Shown piece by piece: positions 2,669 to 63,627 of a stretch of DNA of 64,000 nucleotides. Under the pieces are notes generated by a model that ran no database searches, had not been told where the DNA came from, and saw only the letters and a list, made by a program, of their open reading frames with translations. A program made the translations under genes and the position numbers. The DNA lies in NCBI GenBank assembly GCA_001777665.1, contig MFEQ01000006.1, positions 24,309-88,308 of the forward strand, written 5' to 3'. The stretch comes from Candidatus Doudnabacteria bacterium RIFCSPHIGHO2_02_FULL_42_25. GTDB lineage: Bacteria > Patescibacteriota > Doudnabacteria > UBA920 > O2-02-FULL-48-8. Position 1 is the stretch's first letter; each line of letters starts with the position of its first letter.

Positions 2669-3970
2669 TCATAAACCATTAACCATCTTGATAAACTGCT
2701 CTCCGCGATCCTTATAATCTTTAAACATGTCGAAACTTGATGCTCCGGGAGAAAGTAAGACCAAATCCCCAGACACAGCCACGTTCTCTATTTGATCGAA
2801 AATTTCTTTCATATTCACAGCTCCCGTCAACAACTTGCCTTGAAACCCTTCTAACTGCTTGGTAATTTTTGACGCTTCCTCACCAATCACAATCACTGCC
2901 TTCACACTTGGAGATGTTTTTATGACGTTAGCTAAAACTTTGTACTGAAGTCCTTTGCTAGCACCTCCGACAATCAATATTTCTGATTGCGTAAAAGTTT
3001 TAATCGCCGCGATAGTGGATTCTTCATTCGTGCTGATTGAATCATCGACATATGTAATTCCATTTTTCACTGCAACGACGTTTAACCGGTGAGGTAACGG
3101 TTGAAATTCTGCCACAGATTTTCTTATCGATTCATCCGCAATTTTAAAAATTTTGGCGACTTCAATTGCGGCTGCAATATTGTCCCAATTGTGACTTCCT
3201 AAAAGCTTAGTCTGGTAATTTGATGCCGAATTTGGATCTATGAAAACCTTTTGACCTAATCCCAGTTTTTGGAACCATTCGGGAAGACTTTTATGAATTA
3301 CCGCGTAATCATCCTGCTTTTGATGAGCTATAATGTTCGACTTCGCTCGGAGGTACTCTTCCAAATTTTTATGATGATTTAAATGATCCGGTGAAATCGA
3401 TAACACAACCGCAATGTGCGGGGATTGTTCTAAATCTTGTAACTGAAAACTAGATAATTCTAAGACCACCAAGTCATCGGATTGAATTTGTTCAAGAAAT
3501 TCAAAAGGATCTTGGCCGATATTCCCAGCAACCCAAACCCGCCCGCCACGCAAGACAGCCCCGCCTGCAACGCGAGCTTGCGAGCGGGCAGGTTGCTGGC
3601 GTTGCGGGCTGGCTTTTTTACTACCGGTGGATAGCATTTCTGCAATCAAAACTGTTGTAGTCCCTTTTCCTTTCGTTCCGGTCACACCAATGATTGGAGC
3701 TGGACAAAGCTCAAAAAAAAGTTTCGTCTGACTGGAAATTTCGACTCCAGCTTCTTTCGCTTTCTGTATTGATTTTGACAGATACGGCAGTCCGGGTGTG
3801 CGAAAAATTATGTCGAACTTTGTCAGTTGATCGATTAGCTCGGCTTCCGATTTCCAATCATGGACAATCGTAAAACTAAGTTCGTTTTTGTTAAAAAAAT
3901 CGGCTAATTTTTGATTGTTGGTACCATAGCCGATGATGCCAATTTTTTTTCCTGTTAACTTCGAAAACAT
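2669..3970 (-). CDS. murD: UDP-N-acetylmuramoylalanine--D-glutamate ligase
   Basis: Mur ligase P-loop GVTGTKGKGTT; 433 aa. Carries an in-frame GC-rich insertion (about 3529-3616) encoding SPQRQQPARSQARVAGGAVLRGGRVW. Confidence 0.8.
   Translation of the reverse strand: MFSKLTGKKIGIIGYGTNNQKLADFFNKNELSFTIVHDWKSEAELIDQLTKFDIIFRTPGLPYLSKSIQKAKEAGVEISSQTKLFFELCPAPIIGVTGTKGKGTTTVLIAEMLSTGSKKASPQRQQPARSQARVAGGAVLRGGRVWVAGNIGQDPFEFLEQIQSDDLVVLELSSFQLQDLEQSPHIAVVLSISPDHLNHHKNLEEYLRAKSNIIAHQKQDDYAVIHKSLPEWFQKLGLGQKVFIDPNSASNYQTKLLGSHNWDNIAAAIEVAKIFKIADESIRKSVAEFQPLPHRLNVVAVKNGITYVDDSISTNEESTIAAIKTFTQSEILIVGGASKGLQYKVLANVIKTSPSVKAVIVIGEEASKITKQLEGFQGKLLTGAVNMKEIFDQIENVAVSGDLVLLSPGASSFDMFKDYKDRGEQFIKMVNGL
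3529..3616. repeat. GC-rich palindromic module inserted in-frame in murD (RPE-like)
   Basis: Starts aacccgcccgccacgcaag and ends gcgttgcgggctgg. The same termini occur in the module at 33857-33897. Local GC far above flanking coding sequence. Confidence 0.6.
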
Positions 3971-5526: not shown

Positions 5527-6572
5527 TATCGTCCTATCAAGTTAACTGCAACTCCTACGATTGCGAACACCACGGAGACTACCCAGAGTCGCATCGTGAC
5601 TTTTGTTTCTGGCCAGCCCTTAGCTTCGAAATGGTGATGTAGTGGTGAAGATAAAAATAATTTTCGACCTGTCGTGTGGCGCCACGTCCACTGCAAAAGA
5701 GTGGATATGGATTCCAAAACTAAAACAAATCCGATCAAAGGTAGAACAATGACGGAATTAGTCAAAAACGCAATTACTGCCAGTACTGTCCCGAGTGACA
5801 TCGAACCCGTATCACCCATAAAAAACCTGGCTGGGAAAATGTTAAACCACAGAAATGCTAACAAAGCGCCACCAATGACTCCAGCCAGTGCGGCTAACTC
5901 GAAACGTCCTTGTAAAAATGCGATCAATCCGTACGACAAAAAAGCGACAGCTAAGACTCCACCTGCCAATCCATCTAACCCGTCAGTTTGGTTAACTGAA
6001 AAACTCGTTGCAATCACGACAAAAATAAACAATGGCACAATCCAGGCACCAATCACTAAATCACCAACTCCTGGAATATGTAAAATATCGAATTGAAGTT
6101 TATAGTAAAACCAGTAAGCCCCGATGATGGCAATCAGCGTATAAAACAGTAATCGGTGACGCATTCGGAGTCCCCCGCCCTTCCCACCTCCCGCTCCTTT
6201 TATTCCCAAATAATCATCTAGGAGTCCCAGAACCGCAGCCGCACCTAATACTCCCAAAGGCAGTAAGGTTTGCTGCCTCGTCAAAAAATTCAGTTTGTGA
6301 AATAGTTCAAAACCTAAAACTCGATCCAAAAACCAAAAAATTGCAGCCAGAGCTAGCGTTGTAAACCAAATCAAAACACCGCCCATGGTTGGCGTGCCAT
6401 TTTTCTTCTCGTGAAGCTTGGTATAAAACGGAGTGTCGCCTTCGGCTCGAATTTTTTTCCCAAATTTGTGTTTGTAGACAAAATTAGTAAAAATTGGCGT
6501 CAAACTGATCGCCACCGCGAAGCTAATTGCAGCAAGTGAAAATATTTTTATTAAAGCGTCCGCCGATGTCAT
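5526..6572 (-). CDS. mraY: Phospho-N-acetylmuramoyl-pentapeptide transferase
   Basis: MraY motifs (DDYLGIKG..., MGDTGSMSLG); 348 aa. Confidence 0.85.
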   Translation of the reverse strand: MTSADALIKIFSLAAISFAVAISLTPIFTNFVYKHKFGKKIRAEGDTPFYTKLHEKKNGTPTMGGVLIWFTTLALAAIFWFLDRVLGFELFHKLNFLTRQQTLLPLGVLGAAAVLGLLDDYLGIKGAGGGKGGGLRMRHRLLFYTLIAIIGAYWFYYKLQFDILHIPGVGDLVIGAWIVPLFIFVVIATSFSVNQTDGLDGLAGGVLAVAFLSYGLIAFLQGRFELAALAGVIGGALLAFLWFNIFPARFFMGDTGSMSLGTVLAVIAFLTNSVIVLPLIGFVLVLESISTLLQWTWRHTTGRKLFLSSPLHHHFEAKGWPETKVTMRLWVVSVVFAIVGVAVNLIGR

Positions 6573-9751: not shown

Positions 9752-11233
9752 CTAAACATATCCCGGAAAGAAATCACTTTTGATATGTCTCTTGGATACA
9801 CCCATTGATTTTAACAGCTTCTCGAATGCAACAACCATGCCTCGCGGCCCTGAGACATAAAAGGTCCGATCGGACCAAATAGGTAATTCTGCTTCTAATC
9901 GCTTACGGTCAAGTAATCCATCACGATCAGTGACGACATAGATAATTTTAATTCCAAGCTTATTTGCAGCCTCTGACAAAATATCTTTATATGCAATTTC
10001 GCTCTCTGTCTTCACTGAATAGAATAAGACAATATCTCTTTTTTCTTTTTTATCTATGAGGTACTTCACCATACTCCGAAACGGGGTAATACCTATTCCA
10101 CCTGCGATAAATACTAATTTTTTAGTTGTATCTTTGGGTAGTGTAAAATCTCCGGCCAATTGTCCAGCGAGGACGGTTTCACCTGCATTAAGTGACGTTA
10201 GGGTTTGCTTAAAAGTACTGGGTTTATCATAAAATTTAATTCCTAAATCGATATGATCCTCTGTCGGTGATGATGCAATGGTGAAATAACGCCGGTTTCC
10301 TCGCAAATCATCTTTTTTGGTTTTCAAAGTCCATTCTAAATACTGACCGGGTTGGAAATTAATTTTTCGATTTGGAGTAAATTCAAACCCAAATGTCGCT
10401 GGAGCGATTTCTTTTTTTTCTTTCAGCGTCATTTTATATCTTCCCTTGTCAGAAACTAAAAACGAGAAAATGTTTCCTAAGACTAGAGCTAACTCTGGAC
10501 TAGAATACAATGGGCCTATGATAAAATTGGTTCCAGCAATAAACCCAACTATGGCTCCATAAGTAATTCGAAGTTTTCTGTTCGGGGGTGTAGTCAGCGG
10601 TTCGGTTAACATCACAAATGCAAAGTACAGTGTCGAGGAATTGATTAAGGTGCTTTTTATTGCCGACCAAGAATTGGCACCATCGGGAAGAGAAAAAACT
10701 AAACGAATCAAATAGACTATCAAAAAAGATATAACTAAATCAAAATGCTGGAGTTTCCGAGCAATCAGCAATCCTCCGACTATGACAAACGGAACTAAAT
10801 AGATATTGCCGACCCACCAACTAGCACCTTGCTGGATAACTAATAGCGTGGCAATTACAGCAATCGCAGCTGGATTGAATATGTGCTTCCCACGAAAATT
10901 AATAATGTATTTCGCGGCTTGAGAAAAAACAGCGGCCAAAACTACGAACAGCAAATCAGCCCCTGGCGTAATAATCAGAGTCAAAATCGCTGCAGTGATA
11001 TATGCAGATTCATTATTCGTGGGTACTCGAAATATTTTCGAAAAAATCCAGTTTGTAACCAAACAAACGGCAAATAAAATTAGCGACGTTTGAATAATAT
11101 CTAAAGTATCATACGGCACCCAACCAAAAAATGAAAAAATAATCGCTAAGCTGATCAATATAAGCAAAAAGTACAGCATGGCTCTGTACATAGTAATCTT
11201 ATTCAAAAAGCTATCTATGTATGGAACGGTCAT
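9752..11233 (-). CDS. Membrane-bound oxidoreductase: polytopic N-terminal domain fused to FNR-like FAD/NAD(P)-binding domain
   Basis: C-terminal RYFTIASSP (RxYS FAD motif) and GGIGITPFRSM (NAD-binding). About 260-aa hydrophobic N-terminal half. Confidence 0.5.
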   Translation of the reverse strand: MTVPYIDSFLNKITMYRAMLYFLLILISLAIIFSFFGWVPYDTLDIIQTSLILFAVCLVTNWIFSKIFRVPTNNESAYITAAILTLIITPGADLLFVVLAAVFSQAAKYIINFRGKHIFNPAAIAVIATLLVIQQGASWWVGNIYLVPFVIVGGLLIARKLQHFDLVISFLIVYLIRLVFSLPDGANSWSAIKSTLINSSTLYFAFVMLTEPLTTPPNRKLRITYGAIVGFIAGTNFIIGPLYSSPELALVLGNIFSFLVSDKGRYKMTLKEKKEIAPATFGFEFTPNRKINFQPGQYLEWTLKTKKDDLRGNRRYFTIASSPTEDHIDLGIKFYDKPSTFKQTLTSLNAGETVLAGQLAGDFTLPKDTTKKLVFIAGGIGITPFRSMVKYLIDKKEKRDIVLFYSVKTESEIAYKDILSEAANKLGIKIIYVVTDRDGLLDRKRLEAELPIWSDRTFYVSGPRGMVVAFEKLLKSMGVSKRHIKSDFFPGYV

Positions 11234-12877: not shown

Positions 12878-12909
12878 TTACCTAGTTGCCCATATGGGCA
12901 ACTAGGTAA
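12878..12909. repeat. Perfect 32-bp palindrome ttACCTAGTTGCCCATATGGGCAACTAGGTaa (CATATG-core palindrome family, copy 1)
   Basis: Identical 28-bp core at 49787-49814 and 63554-63581. Variants at 43124-43157 and 62962-62989. Confidence 0.9.
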
Positions 12910-12959: not shown

Positions 12960-14444
12960 CTAGTTCTCTACTTCCCCGCCCATAATTTTGAGGGCGGACT
13001 CCACTAACTCATCTTTTTGCTCCACTTGAGCCTCACCTTTTTGTAACGTAGGTTTTACCATCAGTTTCAGTCCCGTCACTTCTTCGATTACTTGATCGAC
13101 AACGATTCGATTCTTACGCGCTTCGATCGCATCTTTATGAAATTTATATGGAAATATCACTACCAGTTCTTTTCCTTCTATAGAAATAGGCTGAGCTAGT
13201 TTTAAACTCGAGATAAGCGAGTGGTTATATTCTTTTAGTTTTTCCAGAATCTGCGGCCAGTGAGCTTGGACTTTGGCAAATAACTCCCCCTCGCCCTCTC
13301 TTACATTAAGAGGGGGTTCCTCTGCTGCTTCATCCCCCCTTAATATAAGGGGGGATTGAGGGGGGTTATTCTCCTCGGTCGCCTCTACTGCGGCTAATTC
13401 AAGTGGCAGACTCTGGATCGATGACCATTTGATTTCACCTTCAGCTTTCTGGAATATCTGAATGATCTGCATAATTCTTGGCAATTCCAAAGCTTGGGCT
13501 TGATCCTTCATCTTCTGTGAAATTTCTTCGGTATAACCAAAATCAGAAGTTGTCCCCACTTTCGTCAACAATATTTTTCGCAAATACTCTAAAAAATCTT
13601 TTTCAAATTGATATAAATCTTTGCCCCCATAAGTCAGATCTGAAATAAAACTCACCGCTTCTTGGGTTTGATTTTCTACGAGCAGATCTAGGAATTTACT
13701 CAAAGTCTTCACGCCTGTTAAACCGAGGACTGTTTCGACTAATTCTTCAGTAATCTCGCCTTCGGCGTAATTCATAACTTGATCGAGTAGTGATAGCCCA
13801 TCTCGAAAACTGCCATCCGCAGCAGTCGCGATTTCCATCAGGGCTCCTTCACTAACTTTGATCTGATTATCGGAAGCCACATATGCGAGATGCTTGCTTA
13901 AATCTGCAATGCCGACTTTTTTAAAATCAAATCGTTGCGTCCGCGAAATAATCGTGGCTGGAACTTTATGAATTTCGGTCGTGGCCAAAATAAATACGGC
14001 ATGACTCGGTGGTTCTTCCAAAGTCTTAAGTAATGCATTAAAAGCGCCTTTTGAAAGCATGTGCACTTCATCGACAATAATCACTTTATATGTGGCCTTA
14101 GTTGGGGCAAATTGCAAATGATCGATCAATTCTCGAATATTATCCACGCCAGTGTGCGACGCCGCATCTATTTCCAGCAAATCTAAACTGGTATTCTCTA
14201 GAAATGGTTTACAGATCTCGCATTCGTTGCAGGGTTCCGAGCCTGTTCTATTCTGACAATTAATAGCCCGCGCAAAAATCCGAGCTAGCGTCGTTTTCCC
14301 GACCCCTCTGGGTCCGGTGAATAAATAAGCGTGGCCCACGCGATTATTGGCGACCGCATTGGCGAGCGTGGTTTTGATGTGTTCCTGATTGACCACGGAA
14401 CCGAAATTCAGTGGCCGATATTTTCTATACAATACTAAGTTCAT
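12960..14444 (-). CDS. dnaX: DNA polymerase III subunit gamma/tau
   Basis: Walker A GPRGVGKTT, clamp-loader motifs. Contains an in-frame GC-rich insertion (about 13290-13375) encoding EENNPPQSPLILRGDEAAEEPPLNVREGEGE. Confidence 0.85.
   Translation of the reverse strand: MNLVLYRKYRPLNFGSVVNQEHIKTTLANAVANNRVGHAYLFTGPRGVGKTTLARIFARAINCQNRTGSEPCNECEICKPFLENTSLDLLEIDAASHTGVDNIRELIDHLQFAPTKATYKVIIVDEVHMLSKGAFNALLKTLEEPPSHAVFILATTEIHKVPATIISRTQRFDFKKVGIADLSKHLAYVASDNQIKVSEGALMEIATAADGSFRDGLSLLDQVMNYAEGEITEELVETVLGLTGVKTLSKFLDLLVENQTQEAVSFISDLTYGGKDLYQFEKDFLEYLRKILLTKVGTTSDFGYTEEISQKMKDQAQALELPRIMQIIQIFQKAEGEIKWSSIQSLPLELAAVEATEENNPPQSPLILRGDEAAEEPPLNVREGEGELFAKVQAHWPQILEKLKEYNHSLISSLKLAQPISIEGKELVVIFPYKFHKDAIEARKNRIVVDQVIEEVTGLKLMVKPTLQKGEAQVEQKDELVESALKIMGGEVEN
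13334..13374. repeat. Copy of the ccccttaatataagggg-ggttag-gaggggttat element embedded in-frame in dnaX
   Basis: ccccccttaatataaggggggattgaggggggttattctcc. Compare 60616-60669 and 21040-21085 (reverse orientation). Confidence 0.65.
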
Positions 14445-16537: not shown

Positions 16538-16638
16538 TTTAACCATTTCGAGGGCCGGTCAATTGACCGGTTAGCGAGAAATCGATTTTCCGAGAGTGAC
16601 TCCTCTTAGGAGGGATCTCTCACTTCGTTCGAGATGGG
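16538..16638 (+). repeat. Structured repeat family ccatttcga...GGAGGGATCTCTCACTTCGTTCGAGATGG, copy A
   Basis: Shares aaccatttcga, an internal GC hairpin (ggccggtcaattgaccgg), gagaaatcg and a 29-nt 3' block with copies at 19844-19919 and 27001-27082. 5' ccatttcga pairs with 3' tcgagatgg (one G-U pair). Confidence 0.7.
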
Positions 16639-19843: not shown

Positions 19844-19919
19844 TAACCATTTCGACCCCGGACTTGATCCGGGGGAGAAATCGCTCTTGGGAGGGATCTC
19901 TCTCTTCGTTCGAGATGGG
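19844..19919 (+). repeat. ccatttcga...GGAGGGATCTCTCTCTTCGTTCGAGATGG element, copy B
   Basis: ttttaaccatttcga + hairpin ccccggacttgatccgggg + gagaaatcg + gggagggatctctctcttcgttcgagatggg. Confidence 0.7.
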
Positions 19920-21017: not shown

Positions 21018-21039
21018 CTGCAGTCTAAGGCTTAGGATA

Positions 21040-21085
21040 TAACCCCTCCTAACCTCCCCTTATATTAAGGGGAGGAACAACTGCA
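21040..21085 (-). repeat. gcagttgttcctccccttaatataaggggaggttaggaggggttat element (reverse orientation) in the 5' leader of paralog 2
   Basis: Reverse complement is about 95% identical over about 46 nt to 60616-60669. Confidence 0.75.
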
Positions 21086-23269: not shown

Positions 23270-24664
23270 ATGTTGAAGCTATTTAATTCCCTAACACGAA
23301 AAATTGAAGAATTTAAGCCCATAACCGACAAAGCAGTCGGTCTTTATACTTGTGGTCCCACAGTTTATAACTATGCGCATGTAGGCAATCTTCGGACATA
23401 TCTGTTTGAAGACTTCTTGAGACGCGCTTTGGAATATAATGGTTACACAGTTAAACACGTAATGAATATTACTGACGTTGGACACTTAACCGGCGATCAA
23501 GACTTTGGGGAAGATAAGATGGAAAAAGAAGGTGGGTCAGTGGAGGAGATTCTAAACTTGGCAAAAAAATATACGGATGCCTTTCTGGCTGATCTCAAAA
23601 CGCTGAATATCTTGCAAGCTGAAACACTGGCTCCAGCAACTGAATATATCCCGCAACAAATTAAATTAATTGAAAAACTTTTTCAAAAAGAAATCGCTTA
23701 CGAGACTGAATTGGCTATTTATTTTGACGTTTCAAAATTTGAAAATTACGGACAACTCACTGGTCAAAAAATGGAAGATAAAAAAGTTGGGGCCAGATCA
23801 GATGTTGTAGTAGATAAAAATAAAAAACACCCTGCGGATTTTGCACTCTGGTTTAAACTAGCTGGGAAGTACAAAAATCATCTTTTACGATGGGATTCGC
23901 CGTGGGGGCAAGGCTTTCCTGGCTGGCATATAGAATGTTCTGCTATTTCTGAACATTTTTTGGGACAACCTTTTGATATTCATACTGGGGGCATCGACCA
24001 TCTTTTTCCACATCACACAAATGAGATAGCTCAAAGCGAAGGAGCTAACGATAAGCCCTTAGCTAATTATTGGCTCCATGGTGAGCACCTTTTGATCCGT
24101 GAAGGTAGAATGGGAAAATCTGAAGGTAATATCTTAACTTTGTCAGCTTTGGTAGACAAAGGCTTTAACCCTCTCGCCTATCGATATTTAGTTTTGACCT
24201 CTCATTATCGCAGTAAATTAAATTTTACTGAAGAAAGTCTGACTGGCGCCCAACATGCGTTAAATAATCTTTACCAAGAGATTTCTAATTACGACGAACC
24301 CAAAGTTGGTTGCGCCCAGTTTGAAGAAGATTTTTTAAATGCTGTTAATAATGATCTGGATACGCCGAAAGCCCTGGCAATTATGTGGGATCTTATCAAA
24401 ACTGACGAGTTCCCAACCTCGGCGAAAGCTCAAACCTTGTTTAAATTTGATGAGATTTTAGGTCTGAAAATGAAAGCAGTCTGGGAAGCAGCCAAAGTCA
24501 TACCCGATGTGGTCCACAAATTAATCGACGAGCGTGAAGTAGCGCGCAAATCAAAAGATTTCGTCCGCTCCGATGAATTACGCCGAGCCATCGAATCCAA
24601 TGGTTACATCGTCGAGGATACTCTCGATGGCTTTCGAGTCAAGAAAAAATTTGACAAAAATTGA
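23270..24664 (+). CDS. cysS: Cysteine--tRNA ligase
   Basis: Class I HIGH-type (HVGN) and KMSKS-type (RMGKS) motifs; CysS-like zinc ligands. Confidence 0.85.
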   Translation: MLKLFNSLTRKIEEFKPITDKAVGLYTCGPTVYNYAHVGNLRTYLFEDFLRRALEYNGYTVKHVMNITDVGHLTGDQDFGEDKMEKEGGSVEEILNLAKKYTDAFLADLKTLNILQAETLAPATEYIPQQIKLIEKLFQKEIAYETELAIYFDVSKFENYGQLTGQKMEDKKVGARSDVVVDKNKKHPADFALWFKLAGKYKNHLLRWDSPWGQGFPGWHIECSAISEHFLGQPFDIHTGGIDHLFPHHTNEIAQSEGANDKPLANYWLHGEHLLIREGRMGKSEGNILTLSALVDKGFNPLAYRYLVLTSHYRSKLNFTEESLTGAQHALNNLYQEISNYDEPKVGCAQFEEDFLNAVNNDLDTPKALAIMWDLIKTDEFPTSAKAQTLFKFDEILGLKMKAVWEAAKVIPDVVHKLIDEREVARKSKDFVRSDELRRAIESNGYIVEDTLDGFRVKKKFDKN

Positions 24665-24985
24665 GCTTGGGTGTATAATTATTTTAATAATTTGTATCAA
24701 CTAGGCGGCCCAGGGCCGTTTTTATGTTTTCATTTTCTTTTCTTCATCTTCTTTAAGTCGAAGGGGCGAGCACTTTGGCAAGAAAACTAGCTTTCGCAGG
24801 TCGCGTGGGGCGACCGAGAACGCAGGCTGCAAAAATTGGCTTTCCAATGCCGATTTTTGACAGCCGTTAGTTTTTTGCCAAAATGCGAGCAAAGCTTCGA
24901 CTTTATCCCCACTGTCCACAGTTTCCACAGGGTTGCTAAATATTTTTGTACAATCTAATAATTAGAGTACGTTTTAAAGTCAAGC

Positions 24986-26401
24986 ATGCCTAAAAAGTCA
25001 GCCGAAATCAAACCGACGGAAAATTACATCAATCGTATCCCGCCACAAAATAAAGAAGCCGAACAATCTGTTTTGGGCTCTTTATTGCTAGATCGTGATG
25101 CTGTGATCAAAATCGCGGATTTAATCACTGCTGATGATTTTTACGAAGATAAACACAAGGTAATCTATCTGGCGATCTTAGCGCTTTATGACGAACGGTC
25201 TTCCATCGATATTTTAACTGTATCAAACAAGCTCGATGAAGGTCACAGTTTAGATAAAATCGGAGGTATGAGTTACCTTACGACTCTGGTCAACTCTGTC
25301 CCTTCTAGCGCTCACATAGTGCACTATGCCAACATCATCCGTCGAAAAGGCACTCTCCGAAGACTGATCTCGGCTTCTACAGATATCGTGGGCCTGGGTT
25401 ACCAAGAAGATCTGGATCTCGAGTCGCTGCTTGATCAAGCTGAACAAAAATTATTTTCAGTATCCCAAAAATACCTCAAACAAAACTTCATCGCTTTATC
25501 AGAAATTCTGCATGAAACTTTTGATCGTATCGATGAACTACACAGGGAAAAAGGAAAATTACGCGGCGTGCCGACTGGGTTCACTGACCTCGATAATAAA
25601 TTGGGCGGCTTACAAAAATCCGATTTGGTGATTCTCGCCGCTCGTCCATCAATGGGTAAAACTTCATTGGCTCTCGACATCGTCCGCCAAGTCGCTATGA
25701 ATGAAAACAAAGCTGTGGCCATATTTTCTCTGGAAATGAGTAAAGATCAATTAGTGGACCGATTGTTGGCTGCTGAAGCTGATGTTGATCTTTGGAAAAT
25801 GCGCACTGGCAAACTCAATGATTTAGGTCCCGATAACGACTTTGAACGCATCGGGCACGCGCTCGGCAGACTGTCTGAAGCACCTATTTACATAGATGAC
25901 TCGGGAGCATTAAATATAATGGAGCTGCGCACCAAAGCTCGGAGACTACAAGCAGAACACGATCTCGATCTAATCGTGGTTGATTATCTGCAGTTAATGC
26001 AAGGCCGTAGCACAGAGAATCGTGTCCAAGAAGTATCTGAAATTTCCCGATCTCTGAAAATCCTGGCCAAAGAATTAAACGTACCGGTGCTTGCACTGTC
26101 CCAGTTATCTCGTGCAGTTGAACAGCGCGGCGGCGACAAAAAACCACAGCTCTCTGATTTACGCGAATCAGGATCGATCGAACAGGACGCTGATGTGGTA
26201 ATGTTTATTTACCGTGATGAAATGTACTCGGGCAAAGACTCGAAAAAGCCTCATATCGCTGAAATTTTGATCCGTAAGCACCGCAATGGACCGACTGGCG
26301 ACGTGGAATTGTTCTTCGATGCTGAAAAGACATCGTTTAAGAATCTGGCTAAATCCCCTCCTCCAATCGAGGAAGCTATGATGGAACAAATAATGGAATA
26401 G
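24986..26401 (+). CDS. dnaB: Replicative DNA helicase
   Basis: DnaB N-terminal domain plus RecA-like domain with Walker A ARPSMGKTS; 471 aa. Confidence 0.85.
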   Translation: MPKKSAEIKPTENYINRIPPQNKEAEQSVLGSLLLDRDAVIKIADLITADDFYEDKHKVIYLAILALYDERSSIDILTVSNKLDEGHSLDKIGGMSYLTTLVNSVPSSAHIVHYANIIRRKGTLRRLISASTDIVGLGYQEDLDLESLLDQAEQKLFSVSQKYLKQNFIALSEILHETFDRIDELHREKGKLRGVPTGFTDLDNKLGGLQKSDLVILAARPSMGKTSLALDIVRQVAMNENKAVAIFSLEMSKDQLVDRLLAAEADVDLWKMRTGKLNDLGPDNDFERIGHALGRLSEAPIYIDDSGALNIMELRTKARRLQAEHDLDLIVVDYLQLMQGRSTENRVQEVSEISRSLKILAKELNVPVLALSQLSRAVEQRGGDKKPQLSDLRESGSIEQDADVVMFIYRDEMYSGKDSKKPHIAEILIRKHRNGPTGDVELFFDAEKTSFKNLAKSPPPIEEAMMEQIME

Positions 26402-26508
26402 CGCTCGGAATAAAATTTTTATGCACCGGCCATAAAATTCTGCTGAATTTTTGGCCTACGCGCTCGGTCCGTCGACCTGCGCGAGTTGCTAAAAATTTAT
26501 TCCTCGCT
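26402..26508 (+). ncRNA. Candidate structured RNA (about 105 nt), copy 1 of a two-copy family with compensatory changes
   Basis: Conserved core accggccRtaaaattctgctgaattttYggcctacgcgctcggtccgtcgacctgcgcgagtt. Closing stems differ between copies but are each self-complementary. A/G and T/C substitutions maintain a base pair in the ggccRtaaaattc hairpin. Confidence 0.45.
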
Positions 26509-27000: not shown

Positions 27001-27082
27001 TACCACTTCGAACGATTAGTGAGAAGTCGCTCCTACAAGGGTTAGCGCTTGGAGGAGGGATCTCTCACTTCGTTCGAGATGG
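27001..27082 (+). repeat. ccacttcga...GGAGGAGGGATCTCTCACTTCGTTCGAGATGG element, copy C
   Basis: Shares 5' accaYttcga, gagaaRtcg and the 29-nt 3' block with copies A and B. Confidence 0.65.
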
Positions 27083-56370: not shown

Positions 56371-56960
56371 ATTCTTTTTACAGCTTCAATGAACATTTTG
56401 TTAGTATCGTCAGATACAATTATGAGCCCTCGCACTATTCTTCTGTATGCAGGATCATCGGATTGGCCTCTTCCTCTCGTTATATGATCGAAGCCTCCTA
56501 CTGCAGTCACTAAAATCCAAGGATTGTGCTCTTCCACATCAGGTAATTCATGCCGGTGCTCATTGAAATCCCGACGGTATTCATCTAACCGTAACTGCAG
56601 TAATTTATCCCAATCGATCAAGAATTTCTCCTCAATCCCGAAAGATTTTAAAATTTCTTTGTATGCAGTGAGAATTCCATTTTTTACTTCTTTCAAATAC
56701 TCCCTAAAAAAATCTTCGTGAAAATTAATCAGTGTTTCAGTTTGAAAATAGACTAAACAGAGCGCCGTGACTACTAATTCATTAAAGATCCGATCTTGTT
56801 CAGTTTGGGATAACGAGTCAAAATTAATTTCGCTTCTAAAATCTATATTTCGAAATAAGTCAAAAGCTGACTTTATTGCCTTCATAGTAATGGCCACAGT
56901 ATCTTTTGCCGAATTTGGAGGACCGTAAACAAGTTTTCTGAACATAAAATAGAGTCTCAC
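56367..56960 (-). CDS. Hypothetical protein (197 aa) with possible HEPN-like Rx4H motif (RRDFNEH)
   Basis: ORF. The motif call is weak pattern-matching only. Confidence 0.3.
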   Translation of the reverse strand: MRLYFMFRKLVYGPPNSAKDTVAITMKAIKSAFDLFRNIDFRSEINFDSLSQTEQDRIFNELVVTALCLVYFQTETLINFHEDFFREYLKEVKNGILTAYKEILKSFGIEEKFLIDWDKLLQLRLDEYRRDFNEHRHELPDVEEHNPWILVTAVGGFDHITRGRGQSDDPAYRRIVRGLIIVSDDTNKMFIEAVKRI

Positions 56961-56965
56961 TACGC

Positions 56966-57514
56966 CTAATTGTGCGATCGTGTATTTTGCGTAGAATCAA
57001 ACAGCATTCTGCCTTCTAGGATATTAACATTTAATTCTACTTGTAATTCTTTTAATAGCTCTTTAAATTCTGGTAGTAGCTCCCAAGGTCCGATAAAAAC
57101 ACTCTTTTGCAACATCATAAAGCCGTTTTGAATTAAAAATCGTCTTAAAAATTGTCTGGCTTTTTTCTTTTCTTCGGGGATATCAAACATAACTAGAGTT
57201 GAAAATCCGTTATTCTTTGCCCTTCTCAACTTTCTTGAGTATATATATTTCAAACTCCTTGCCCGCCCTAAATTCGTTATCTGATAGTATGTTTTTCTTT
57301 CTTTTTTGATTTTTTTTACTAAGCCATCTCTGTCTAGTTCCCAAAAAGCTCTGGAAATTTTATAGCGATCATAATATTTAAGCCTTTTGATATATTGATA
57401 CTTGCCTTCAAAAGGATAAGGAATCAGCTCCCCCATATCGCGCAAAAACCAAAGCAATTCTCCAGTAATTGTCTTTAGACGCTTCTTGATTTTTCTTTTG
57501 GTAGTACGTTTCAT
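56966..57514 (-). CDS. wHTH + Cas2-like (VapD/Cas2 fold) protein, paralog A
   Basis: C-terminal half LVMFDIPEEKKKARQFLRRFLIQNGFMMLQKSVFIGPWE matches the Cas2 signature (V.YD.s....R..l...L...G.r.Q.SVF). Basic N-terminal domain. Paralog at 62995-63546. Confidence 0.4.
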   Translation of the reverse strand: MKRTTKRKIKKRLKTITGELLWFLRDMGELIPYPFEGKYQYIKRLKYYDRYKISRAFWELDRDGLVKKIKKERKTYYQITNLGRARSLKYIYSRKLRRAKNNGFSTLVMFDIPEEKKKARQFLRRFLIQNGFMMLQKSVFIGPWELLPEFKELLKELQVELNVNILEGRMLFDSTQNTRSHN

Positions 57515-57549
57515 ACGTATTTTACGCGATCGCGCATTTTACGTATTAT
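57514..57549 (+). repeat. 36-bp direct repeat (right copy) tacgtattttacGCGATCGCgcattttacgtattat
   Basis: See 56335-56370. Confidence 0.8.
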
Positions 57550-57556
57550 AGCAAAT

Positions 57557-60615: not shown

Positions 60616-60669
60616 GCAGTTGTTCCTCCCCTTAATATAAGGGGAGGTTAGGAGGGGTTATTCATAAGG
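60616..60669 (+). repeat. gcagttgttcctccccttaatataaggggaggttaggaggggttattc element in the 5' leader of the BNR-repeat gene
   Basis: See 21040-21085 and 13334-13374. Confidence 0.75.
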
Positions 60670-62961: not shown

Positions 62962-62989
62962 TACCTAGTTGGCCATATGGGCATTTAGG
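62962..62989. repeat. Degenerate copy of the CATATG-core palindrome (acctagttgGccatatgggcaTTtaggt)
   Basis: Three substitutions relative to the perfect copies. Lies between the GC island and the Cas2-like gene. Confidence 0.7.
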
Positions 62990-62994
62990 TAAAG

Positions 62995-63546
62995 TCAGCC
63001 AAGTTTAAATCTTTTTATTAAATCGGCTTTTATATCTATTTCTTCAGCAGTTATTAATCGTACAAAAGGCCTTATCTCATAGATCTCTTTTAAAAAATCA
63101 ACTTCATCCTCACAAGGATAAGGACATGCCCAAAGACTTTTCTGGACGAGCTCAAAACCAATCTCCCCCAACTTCCTAGTAAACTCTTTTCGGTTATTAT
63201 TAAATTCGACTGGTATATCGTACGTTACTAATCGCCATTTTCTATCCCATTTTTTCTGTGGTTTAATTTTCATATCGTCAATTTTAAATTTCAACCATTT
63301 CTCCTTCCCTTTTTTCGTTAATTTAATAACGGTTTTATCTCCTTCCTGACCTATACTGACCATCCTTGAATTTTCTAAACCCTTAAAAGATCGATCTATT
63401 TGAGTCTTGCTATATTTCTTATATAAATCATACTGACGAAAAATTTCTGCCATACCTGGTGCCACTATGACCACTGCTAAAATCCCGACCTTGGACAGGA
63501 CGTATAAAATATCTTTAGCAATTTCCGAGCGTTTAGCCATACACAA
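62995..63546 (-). CDS. wHTH + Cas2-like protein, paralog B; bracketed by CATATG-core palindromes
   Basis: WRLVTYDIPVEFNNNRKEFTRKLGEIGFELVQKSLWACP matches the same signature as 56966-57514. Confidence 0.4.
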   Translation of the reverse strand: MCMAKRSEIAKDILYVLSKVGILAVVIVAPGMAEIFRQYDLYKKYSKTQIDRSFKGLENSRMVSIGQEGDKTVIKLTKKGKEKWLKFKIDDMKIKPQKKWDRKWRLVTYDIPVEFNNNRKEFTRKLGEIGFELVQKSLWACPYPCEDEVDFLKEIYEIRPFVRLITAEEIDIKADLIKRFKLG

Positions 63547-63553
63547 ATTCTAT

Positions 63554-63581
63554 ACCTAGTTGCCCATATGGGCAACTAGGT
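63554..63581. repeat. Perfect 28-bp palindrome ACCTAGTTGCCCATATGGGCAACTAGGT (copy 3), 8 nt upstream of the Cas2-like gene start
   Basis: Identical to copies 1 and 2. Confidence 0.9.
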
Positions 63582-63627
63582 TACGGGTGTACCCAGTTGT
63601 TCACTTATTAAAAAGACTTGTTCTTAA

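Follow-up and report, generated by a model that had tools for sequence, protein, structure and literature searches.

A family of small structured interspersed repeats with features of mobile DNA in Doudnabacteria and related CPR bacteria

An element of about 107 nt with an extensive self-complementary fold occurs in seven copies, three of them in the window (the whole stretch of DNA that was analyzed, 64,000 nt), three in other Doudnabacteria (L007, L213 and L254) and one on a Paceibacteria-like contig (L128). Its fold, the covariation of its paired positions, its patchy distribution, the near-identity of copies at multiple loci and the discordance between its modules were observed directly. 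On balance we favor the view that the family consists of small non-autonomous structured interspersed repeats, a mobile or selfish DNA of Doudnabacteria and related CPR bacteria. Note that the copies of the window are designated copy 1, copy 2 and copy 3 (w1, w2 and w3), and that L-numbers refer to loci outside of it.

Copy 1 occupies positions 26402-26508 of the plus strand and consists of the 5' terminus CGCTCGG, an arm X, a double-hairpin core, the arm X' and the 3' terminus CCTCGCT (120.5 bits with the covariance model R1, see below). It follows a dnaB-like ORF (24986-26401) with a TAG stop codon at 26399-26401, the element beginning on the very next base, and 31 nt separate its end from the ATG of the next ORF (148 aa). 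The 5' terminus (26402-26408) is unchanged in all five close copies and holds the first of three direct CTCG motifs, the third of which is found in the conserved 3' terminus (26502-26508). The outer stem is formed by the variable 5' arm (26409-26425; identity to the arms of other copies 0.35-0.53) and the variable 3' arm (26488-26501), again on the plus strand, as are the two hairpins of the core. Hairpin 1 (26428-26456) reads GGCCA(U)AAAAUUC, a UGCU loop and GAAUUUUUGGCC, an A+U-rich stem with a covarying A-U/G-C pair. Hairpin 2 (26459-26483) reads CGCGC UC GGUC, a CGUC loop and GACC U GCGCG, and its 5' strand carries the second CTCG within a CGCTCGG heptamer that is identical to the 5' terminus. 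Copy 2 is located on the minus strand at 55689-55794 (134.4 bits with R1), between a proS-like ORF (54413-55651, minus strand, start at 55651) and a divergent, G+C-rich ORF of 104 aa (55896-56210, plus strand).

The original prediction had described these two copies in this place, one behind the dnaB stop codon and one between proS and a GC cassette, with a common two-hairpin core, and all of this was borne out by the sequence. As evidenced by a repeat search of the window, the core common to both comprises 63 nt (arms 26425-26487 and 55710-55772, 97% complementary), and a 33-nt piece of it has two exact occurrences in the window, where none is expected from shuffles. The only two differences between the cores, A/G and T/C, are paired with each other in hairpin 1 and convert an A-U into a G-C pair, precisely the compensated change that had been reported. 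The outer closing stems had also been correctly described as different and yet self-complementary: the arms of copies 1 and 2 are 53% and 43% identical, but each pairs with its own partner. In these two copies the order of parts is CGCTCGG, arm X, CCGGCC(R)UAAAAUUC-UGCU-GAAUUUU(Y)GGCC, UA, CGCGC-UC-GGUC-CGUC-GACC-U-GCGCG, AGUU, arm X' and CCTCGCT. Throughout the family a clamp stem of 16-20 bp lies between the asymmetric termini and the two-hairpin core. The G+C content is 46-52%, against approximately 41% for the window, and the CTCG motif is present three times in direct orientation and in equivalent positions (5' edge, 5' strand of hairpin 2, 3' edge) in seven out of seven copies, with a background frequency of 3.3 per kb.

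Copies 1 and 2 fold into a three-way junction, with z-scores of -5.2 and -6.7 as RNA and of -6.2 and -7.2 as DNA. Among the five close copies, standard pairs make up 96.6% of the 205 pair cells, a value that falls to 28-44% when the pairing partners are slid against each other; over all slid controls the range is 28-49%, against 97%. Of the 41 pairs, 14 have both partners replaced and none has a change confined to a single partner, and not one of 500 shuffles matched any of the pairing or covariation measures. Four covarying pairs belong to the core alone, three of them in hairpin 1 (C-G/U-A, G-C/A-U and A-U/C-G) and one in hairpin 2 (A-U/U-A). With the newly found homologs, compensatory changes are seen in hairpin 1, in hairpin 2 and all along the outer stem, and where the original prediction would have been contradicted by homologs lacking structure-preserving substitutions, they in fact display more of them than two copies could show. 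Across all seven copies 26 of 39 pairs covary, in an alignment that was fitted to the model and is therefore biased towards structure. The loops and the junction of the core are strongly conserved as well. The self-complementary fold is thus real, and it is either under selection or kept by the mechanism that propagates the element.

The element had initially been considered to have two copies only, and this was corrected by the covariance-model search. R1 was trained on four close copies, a set that included neither copy 3 nor L128, and on the minus strand of the window, at 24760-24896, it revealed a third copy (34.3 bits, E 4e-8); it also scored the L128 copy (26.1 bits, E 2e-5). Copy 3 is a diverged member spanning approximately 24766-24890 (minus strand) and comprises GCTCGC, a 19-bp stem, a longer hairpin 1, hairpin 2 and a second GCTCGC, scoring 69 bits with the improved model R2 and folding with z = -8.0. 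It is situated between cysS and dnaB, antisense to both, and is bracketed by an additional inverted repeat, AAGTCGAAG and CTTCGACTT. With filters switched off, R2 recognized no copy in the window beyond these three, and its search of about 100 kb of sequence from five other Doudnabacteria was negative, so that the copy number is low. Within copy 3, at 24857-24884 on the plus strand, we noted a promoter-like TTGACA-16-CAAAAT with an upstream TG that faces dnaB; judging from this predicted site, insertion of an element could place an outward-facing promoter next to a gene.

Copies outside of the window were found in several ways. A scan of one genome per species with a degenerate pattern gave seven matches, six of them chance matches in high-G+C genomes and one real, the copy of L007. 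This is a Doudnabacteria MAG in which the element, the single pattern match in the whole genome, lies immediately downstream of the thioredoxin gene (trx) and before its terminator. The same type of scan on metagenomes yielded at least 114 matches, and L213 and L128 are the real copies among the matches listed. The L213 copy is downstream of ndk and the ndk terminator. In L128 a diverged copy lies in the spacer between 16S, tRNAIle and tRNAAla, antisense to the operon, and the protein encoded next to it has its best named relatives in Pacebacteria/Paceibacterota. A synteny search of the dnaB neighborhoods of relatives added L254 as the fifth close copy, at the same dnaB-stop junction as copy 1. 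Pattern scans of viral contigs returned no real copy, and a search of 5.8 billion proteins with the three ORFs of the core, intended to reveal spurious ORF calls over further copies, returned none that scored. The element has no family match in Rfam 15, neither with the whole window at the gathering threshold nor with all three copies in E-value mode (best score 16.5 bits, threshold 45). Note that L128 contains a second junction-like structure at 5981-6102 with a weak R2 score (20.5 bits, E 0.002), at the start of which the 3' end of the adjacent tRNA-Ala is partially duplicated (GGACCCAAGGAGATTCG), as is seen at integration sites.

The distribution of the copies is patchy. The element is present at the dnaB stop codon in the window and in L254 and absent from the orthologous site in five of six relatives (L247, L248/L249, L250, L251 and L253). 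At each of the six further dnaB loci that were compared, the DnaB protein shares 89-94% identity with that of the window, with approximately 77% identity of the dnaB nucleotides, and the four-fold sites of dnaB are saturated between the window and L254 (31% identical). In place of the element, the site after dnaB holds a different G+C-rich hairpin in L247, a GIY-YIG ORF in L248/L249, a terminator in L250, almost nothing in L251 and an opposite-strand gene in L253. At the same time, the cores of copies 1 and 2, L007 and L213 are 92-97% identical, with arms that are 35-86% identical, and the four loci are unrelated and belong to at least three organisms. At the trx site, L007 carries the element and the window does not, and as the empty site of the window contains no CTCG (nor CGCTCGCT), the conserved termini are read as part of the element; the left CTCG is compatible with an origin from either the target or the element.

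The modules of the element are moreover discordant. L254 and L007 agree to 94% and 87% in their arms, but the core of L254, the most diverged one, agrees with that of L007 to only 81%, and copy 1, at the same locus as L254, combines a canonical core with unrelated arms. Two biallelic covarying pairs of the core occur in all four combinations among four copies. Arm and core discordance together with these four combinations argue for recombination among dispersed copies, and in conjunction with the patchy sites and the near-identical cores they point to insertion or replacement on more than one occasion, accompanied by recombination, across genomes. An RNA that is bound to its locus and inherited vertically explains neither the distribution nor the discordance of modules, and the pattern of presence and absence at orthologous sites, as judged from sequence comparison, is the behavior of a mobile repeat; a conserved ncRNA gene, or a cis-regulator specific to one gene, would behave differently. 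The contexts of the copies are mixed (intercistronic, 3' UTR, behind a terminator, between divergent promoters, antisense in the dnaB leader and antisense in an rRNA/tRNA spacer). Among the annotated genes of the 64-kb window there is no transposase or recombinase, and no RAYT either; together with the low copy number this speaks against a mobile element, as does, for the IS200/IS605 type, the dissimilarity of the two hairpins.

Several further observations were made on the surroundings of dnaB. Unrelated G+C-rich hairpin insertions of about 100 nt are found in L247 (11420-11530, starting with TGCTCGG) and in L253 (approximately 3800-3900, complement), at the same two sites around dnaB. Based on the loci compared, the two intergenic regions flanking this gene appear to be insertion hot spots that also take up GIY-YIG ORFs. 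In L248, at approximately 9880-9900 (complement), the site orthologous to copy 3 reads TCGCTCGGCCTCG, the two termini joined without an interior, between inverted DnaA boxes; this single case may be the deletion remnant of an element. A cluster of DnaA-box-like sequences (TGTGGACAGTGGGGATAAAG; GTGGATAA ... TTATCCAC) lies upstream of dnaB at approximately 24900-24935, in minus-strand reading, and is conserved in all relatives from L247 to L254. Ahead of the cluster lie a promoter with a perfect match to TTGACA-17-TATAAT (24651-24679) and a hairpin terminator that is likewise conserved (24703-24721), and the GC skew does not switch sign here. Genes for a reverse transcriptase and bAvd, components of diversity-generating retroelements, are located near the dnaB region in L248 (14215-15586) and L250 (7760-8119).

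A host-functional structured RNA that resides in untranslated or intercistronic regions and was spread by duplication is the strongest alternative, if a distinctly less probable one. Such an RNA could serve as an RNase III-type cassette, in which cleavage of the clamp of about 20 bp releases a double-hairpin RNA of about 65 nt, as an mRNA-stabilizing 3' structure or as a protein-binding RNA. The covariation in both alignments, beyond anything seen in the shuffles, is what a conserved RNA would be expected to leave, and the strong conservation of the core including its loops, which speaks against a mobile element, also fits a host-functional RNA or a protein-binding site. This conservation extends across CPR classes, as in L128 the CUGCUG loop and CGCGCUCGG are kept and the stem sequence of hairpin 1 is replaced, although it was with these two motifs that the copy had been searched for. 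Each of the five close copies has the same orientation as a neighboring gene, the L007 copy lying within the trx transcript, in the 3' UTR ahead of the terminator, and copy 1 and the L254 copy being intercistronic. This could reflect a role as RNA, or selection acting on the RNA, and no other observation favors either as much, in a small sample of which two copies are probably untranscribed. In the diverged copies, finally, some of the non-Watson-Crick positions turn into G-U on the reverse-complement strand.

The same data also contain what argues against the host RNA. The element is non-syntenic and missing from most orthologous sites, and its neighbors (dnaB, proS, trx, ndk and an rRNA spacer) are unrelated across copies. 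Our promoter and terminator scan revealed neither a conserved promoter nor a conserved terminator accompanying it. Copy 2 is enclosed by the -35 boxes of two predicted promoters that point away from each other, those of proS (minus strand) and of the 104-aa ORF (plus strand), the L213 copy sits between a terminator and the next promoter, and both are therefore probably outside of transcripts. In copy 3 and in L128 the element lies antisense to its transcription unit, so that no strand is consistently transcribed. All 14 covarying pairs of the close family pass from one Watson-Crick pair to another with no G-U intermediate, and there is not a single G-U among the 205 cells; in the diverged copy 3 and L128, wobble positions occur on both strands. 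The two strands fold about equally well, with a slight advantage in stability for the reverse complement in each of the five copies compared, and as single-stranded DNA both strands reach z-scores of -6.2 to -7.6. The original prediction had taken covariation as the hallmark of selection on RNA structure. With changes that are exclusively Watson-Crick, with both strands folding and with single-stranded DNA folding equally well, this step is insecure, and as DNA elements that depend on hairpins leave the same signature, even perfect covariation is in itself no proof of an RNA. The fold and the covariation stand, and the proposal of a novel structured ncRNA is supported in part: the element is structured and without a match in Rfam, but its patchy occurrence, the lack of a promoter and terminator of its own and the mixed orientation are not those of an ncRNA gene.

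To return to the mobile repeat, we infer mobility itself, a substrate at the level of DNA and the class of the enzyme involved, and mobilization as single-stranded DNA is the route that we regard as the most likely. It is the best fit to an element without terminal inverted repeats (TIRs) or target duplication, in which either strand folds and covariation is strictly Watson-Crick. A putative trans-acting enzyme would recognize the double-hairpin core, the clamp stem would hold both termini next to each other where the junction begins, and the three direct CTCG motifs would be sites of recognition or cleavage. The clamp requires complementarity only, and the core is constrained in sequence. Known examples of such a route are the 'peel-and-paste' of HUH/Y1 transposases, with the IS200/IS605-derived PATEs, and the REP/RAYT system. 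More tentatively, and with a lower chance than the host RNA, the family might represent a novel kind of mobile structured nucleic acid common to more than one class of CPR bacteria (Doudnabacteria and Paceibacteria-like), be it a single-stranded-DNA transposon that offers its three CTCG sites on a three-way junction to an HUH-like or other nuclease or an RNA element with the variable clamp stem as its processing site, from which a conserved double-hairpin RNA would be released. If this were true, the architecture of a conserved core and a free clamp would constitute a recognition principle new for bacterial repeats.

A classical miniature element (MITE) with TIRs and target-site duplications that is moved by a DDE transposase is improbable. 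Such elements are likewise short, non-coding and intergenic, with a long hairpin-like fold and several copies, and short direct CTCG/CGCT repeats at the flanks can be read as a duplication. The arms that would have to be the TIRs are, however, the least conserved part (0.35-0.86, versus 0.92-0.97 for the core), and the conserved termini, CGCTCGG and CCTCGCT, do not form an inverted repeat. The five close copies share no consistent direct repeat outside of their termini, the empty trx site contains neither CTCG nor CGCTCGCT, and CGCTCGCT is absent from the window altogether. Nor is the element the pair of TIRs of a high-copy MITE that the original prediction had named as its own refutation. Just as poorly, or slightly worse, fares a binding module for proteins on double-stranded DNA (an operator or a site for nucleoid or replication proteins) or an intrinsic terminator of unusual type: CGCTCGG recurs as a heptamer within the element and copies are near promoters and the DnaA-box cluster upstream of dnaB, but a duplex site needs neither compensatory changes across 40 pairs nor a three-way junction, the neighboring genes are mutually unrelated, and no T-run follows the stem in a family for which the terminator scan lists no terminator at the elements and in which the L007 and L213 copies have separate canonical terminators beside them.

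Four more specific ideas were discarded. That the variable arms derive from the target, the core having been inserted into an existing hairpin, was rejected as the same arms are found at four loci and no empty CGCTCGG-hairpin-CCTCGCT exists in the window. Likewise, CGCTCGCT has no support as a pre-existing target, with no occurrence in the window and none at the empty trx site. A similarity of arm X to the downstream flank is attributed to chance, for it concerns one copy, copy 1, whose score of 11 compares with 5-8 for the controls, the A+T sequence being of low complexity. A hammerhead-like CUGAUGA was considered for CUGCUGA in loop 1, where the invariant A is missing, the motif forms a hairpin loop and not a junction, and Rfam is silent.

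The window contains other repeats. A perfect palindrome of about 30 nt, TACCTAGTTGCCCATATGGGCAACTAGGTA, is present in four copies (12879-12909, 49786-49816, 62962-62992 and 63553-63583), two of which bracket the gene for a 183-aa PaaX_M-domain protein (62995-63546), and these palindromes look like operator sites of that regulator. A similar palindrome, TTGCATTTTGTGCCCGTACGGGCACAAAATGCAA, precedes a promoter in L213. At a distance of 0.6 kb from copy 2, the palindrome TACGTATTTTAYGCGATCGCGCATTTTACGTATTATA occurs twice (56335-56371 and 57514-57550) around a two-gene unit consisting of a 197-aa ORF and a 182-aa protein with PaaX_M and Cas2-like domains. An A+T-rich repeat of 155 nt (2518-2672 and 52355-52509, 97% identity) has inverted ends of about 20 nt, CCCAGTATATCAACTTCGAT ... 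ATCGAAGTTGTATTACTGGG, and each of its copies abuts the start codon of a minus-strand gene; by its sequence features it would be classed as MITE-like or as a shared 5'-leader element. Another G+C-rich family with the core GGGATCTCTCACTTCGTTCGAGATGG is found at 16565-16637, 19884-19919 and 27010-27082, and related sequence in L254 (approximately 9800-9990) adjoins the GIY-YIG ORF between cysS and dnaB. The palindrome CCTCCCCTTATATTAAGGGGAGG with the shared flank GGTTAGGAGGGGTTAT is seen three times and in both orientations (13294-13371, 21039-21084 and 60616-60663).

CPR bacteria have tiny genomes with scarce non-coding DNA, and we know of no small interspersed repeat family described for them; a literature search on this point returned general papers on repeats only. 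A junction fold that is kept across numerous compensatory changes in an element that probably moves between loci and genomes, with neither TIRs nor target duplication, points to a mobilization route yet to be found in these organisms. In practical terms, the element can mark places that are prone to insertion, such as the intergenic regions on either side of dnaB. It also calls for caution in genome scans, as the covariation signature is common to RNA and to hairpin-dependent DNA elements.

Among known systems, the IS200/IS605-derived PATEs have neither TIRs nor target-site duplication, and they combine asymmetric ends with two hairpins. They insert 3' of a fixed tetra- or pentanucleotide, and an identical or similar oligonucleotide closes the right end. 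The present element likewise lacks TIRs and duplications and has asymmetric ends and two hairpins, and CTCG/CGCT at both boundaries of all seven copies may correspond to the oligonucleotide. The hairpins of IS200/IS605 are subterminal and similar to each other (LE and RE), and their ends do not pair with one another. In our element, by contrast, the hairpins are central and unlike, one A+U-rich and one G+C-rich, a long stem of variable sequence holds the ends together, a conserved target tetranucleotide is absent from the flanks, and there is no strand bias within one replichore, with copies on both strands of the window. Integron attC sites also combine short conserved end motifs with a variable self-complementary middle and are recognized as a folded single strand. 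Their R''/R' boxes, RYYYAAC and GTTRRRY, are complementary and enclose no conserved internal core; they are absent here, where the termini are CGCTCGG and CCTCGCT and a core is present. Fungal mitochondrial double-hairpin elements, such as the DHEs of Allomyces and the GC clusters of yeast (the field to which PMC4478555 belongs), are short, G+C-rich and composed of two adjacent hairpins in an A+T-rich genome; they are scattered through intergenic regions and rRNA spacers and vary in presence between relatives, and to our knowledge no enzyme encoded by them has been described. The possible likeness is one between unrelated hosts and without sequence similarity, and our element adds the long clamp stem and the conserved asymmetric termini. 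From structured RNAs it has the secondary structure supported by covariation but no consistent transcription context, with unrelated neighbors, mixed orientation and no promoter or terminator of its own; nor is it an intrinsic terminator, given the canonical ones next to the L007 and L213 copies.

REPs are single stem-loops of 21-65 nt, often present in hundreds of copies and with GTAG at the 5' side in the SMAG type (PMC3184786). Like the REP/BIME/REPIN group with its RAYT (Y1 HUH) enzymes, the element is G+C-rich, extragenic and hairpin-forming, lacks TIRs and target-site duplications and has a short conserved 5' motif. REPs are thought to be mobilized as single-stranded DNA, as we propose here, and can stabilize upstream transcripts. 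The element differs from them in its length of about 107 nt, its three-way junction of two unlike hairpins, its low copy number and its CTCG in place of GTAG, so that neither a palindrome of 21-65 nt nor tens to hundreds of copies are found. The bacterial MITEs (Correia/NEMIS, ERIC/IRU, RUP and BOX) resemble it in being non-coding, intergenic units of about 100-200 nt with long folds at the RNA level that are often co-transcribed (PMC3184786). They possess conserved TIRs around a more variable core, plus target duplications (PMC3184786), and the element with its conserved core, variable arms and no such duplication shows the opposite pattern. Going by its sequence and fold, it is to be filed among the small structured interspersed repeats, as a variant of its own.
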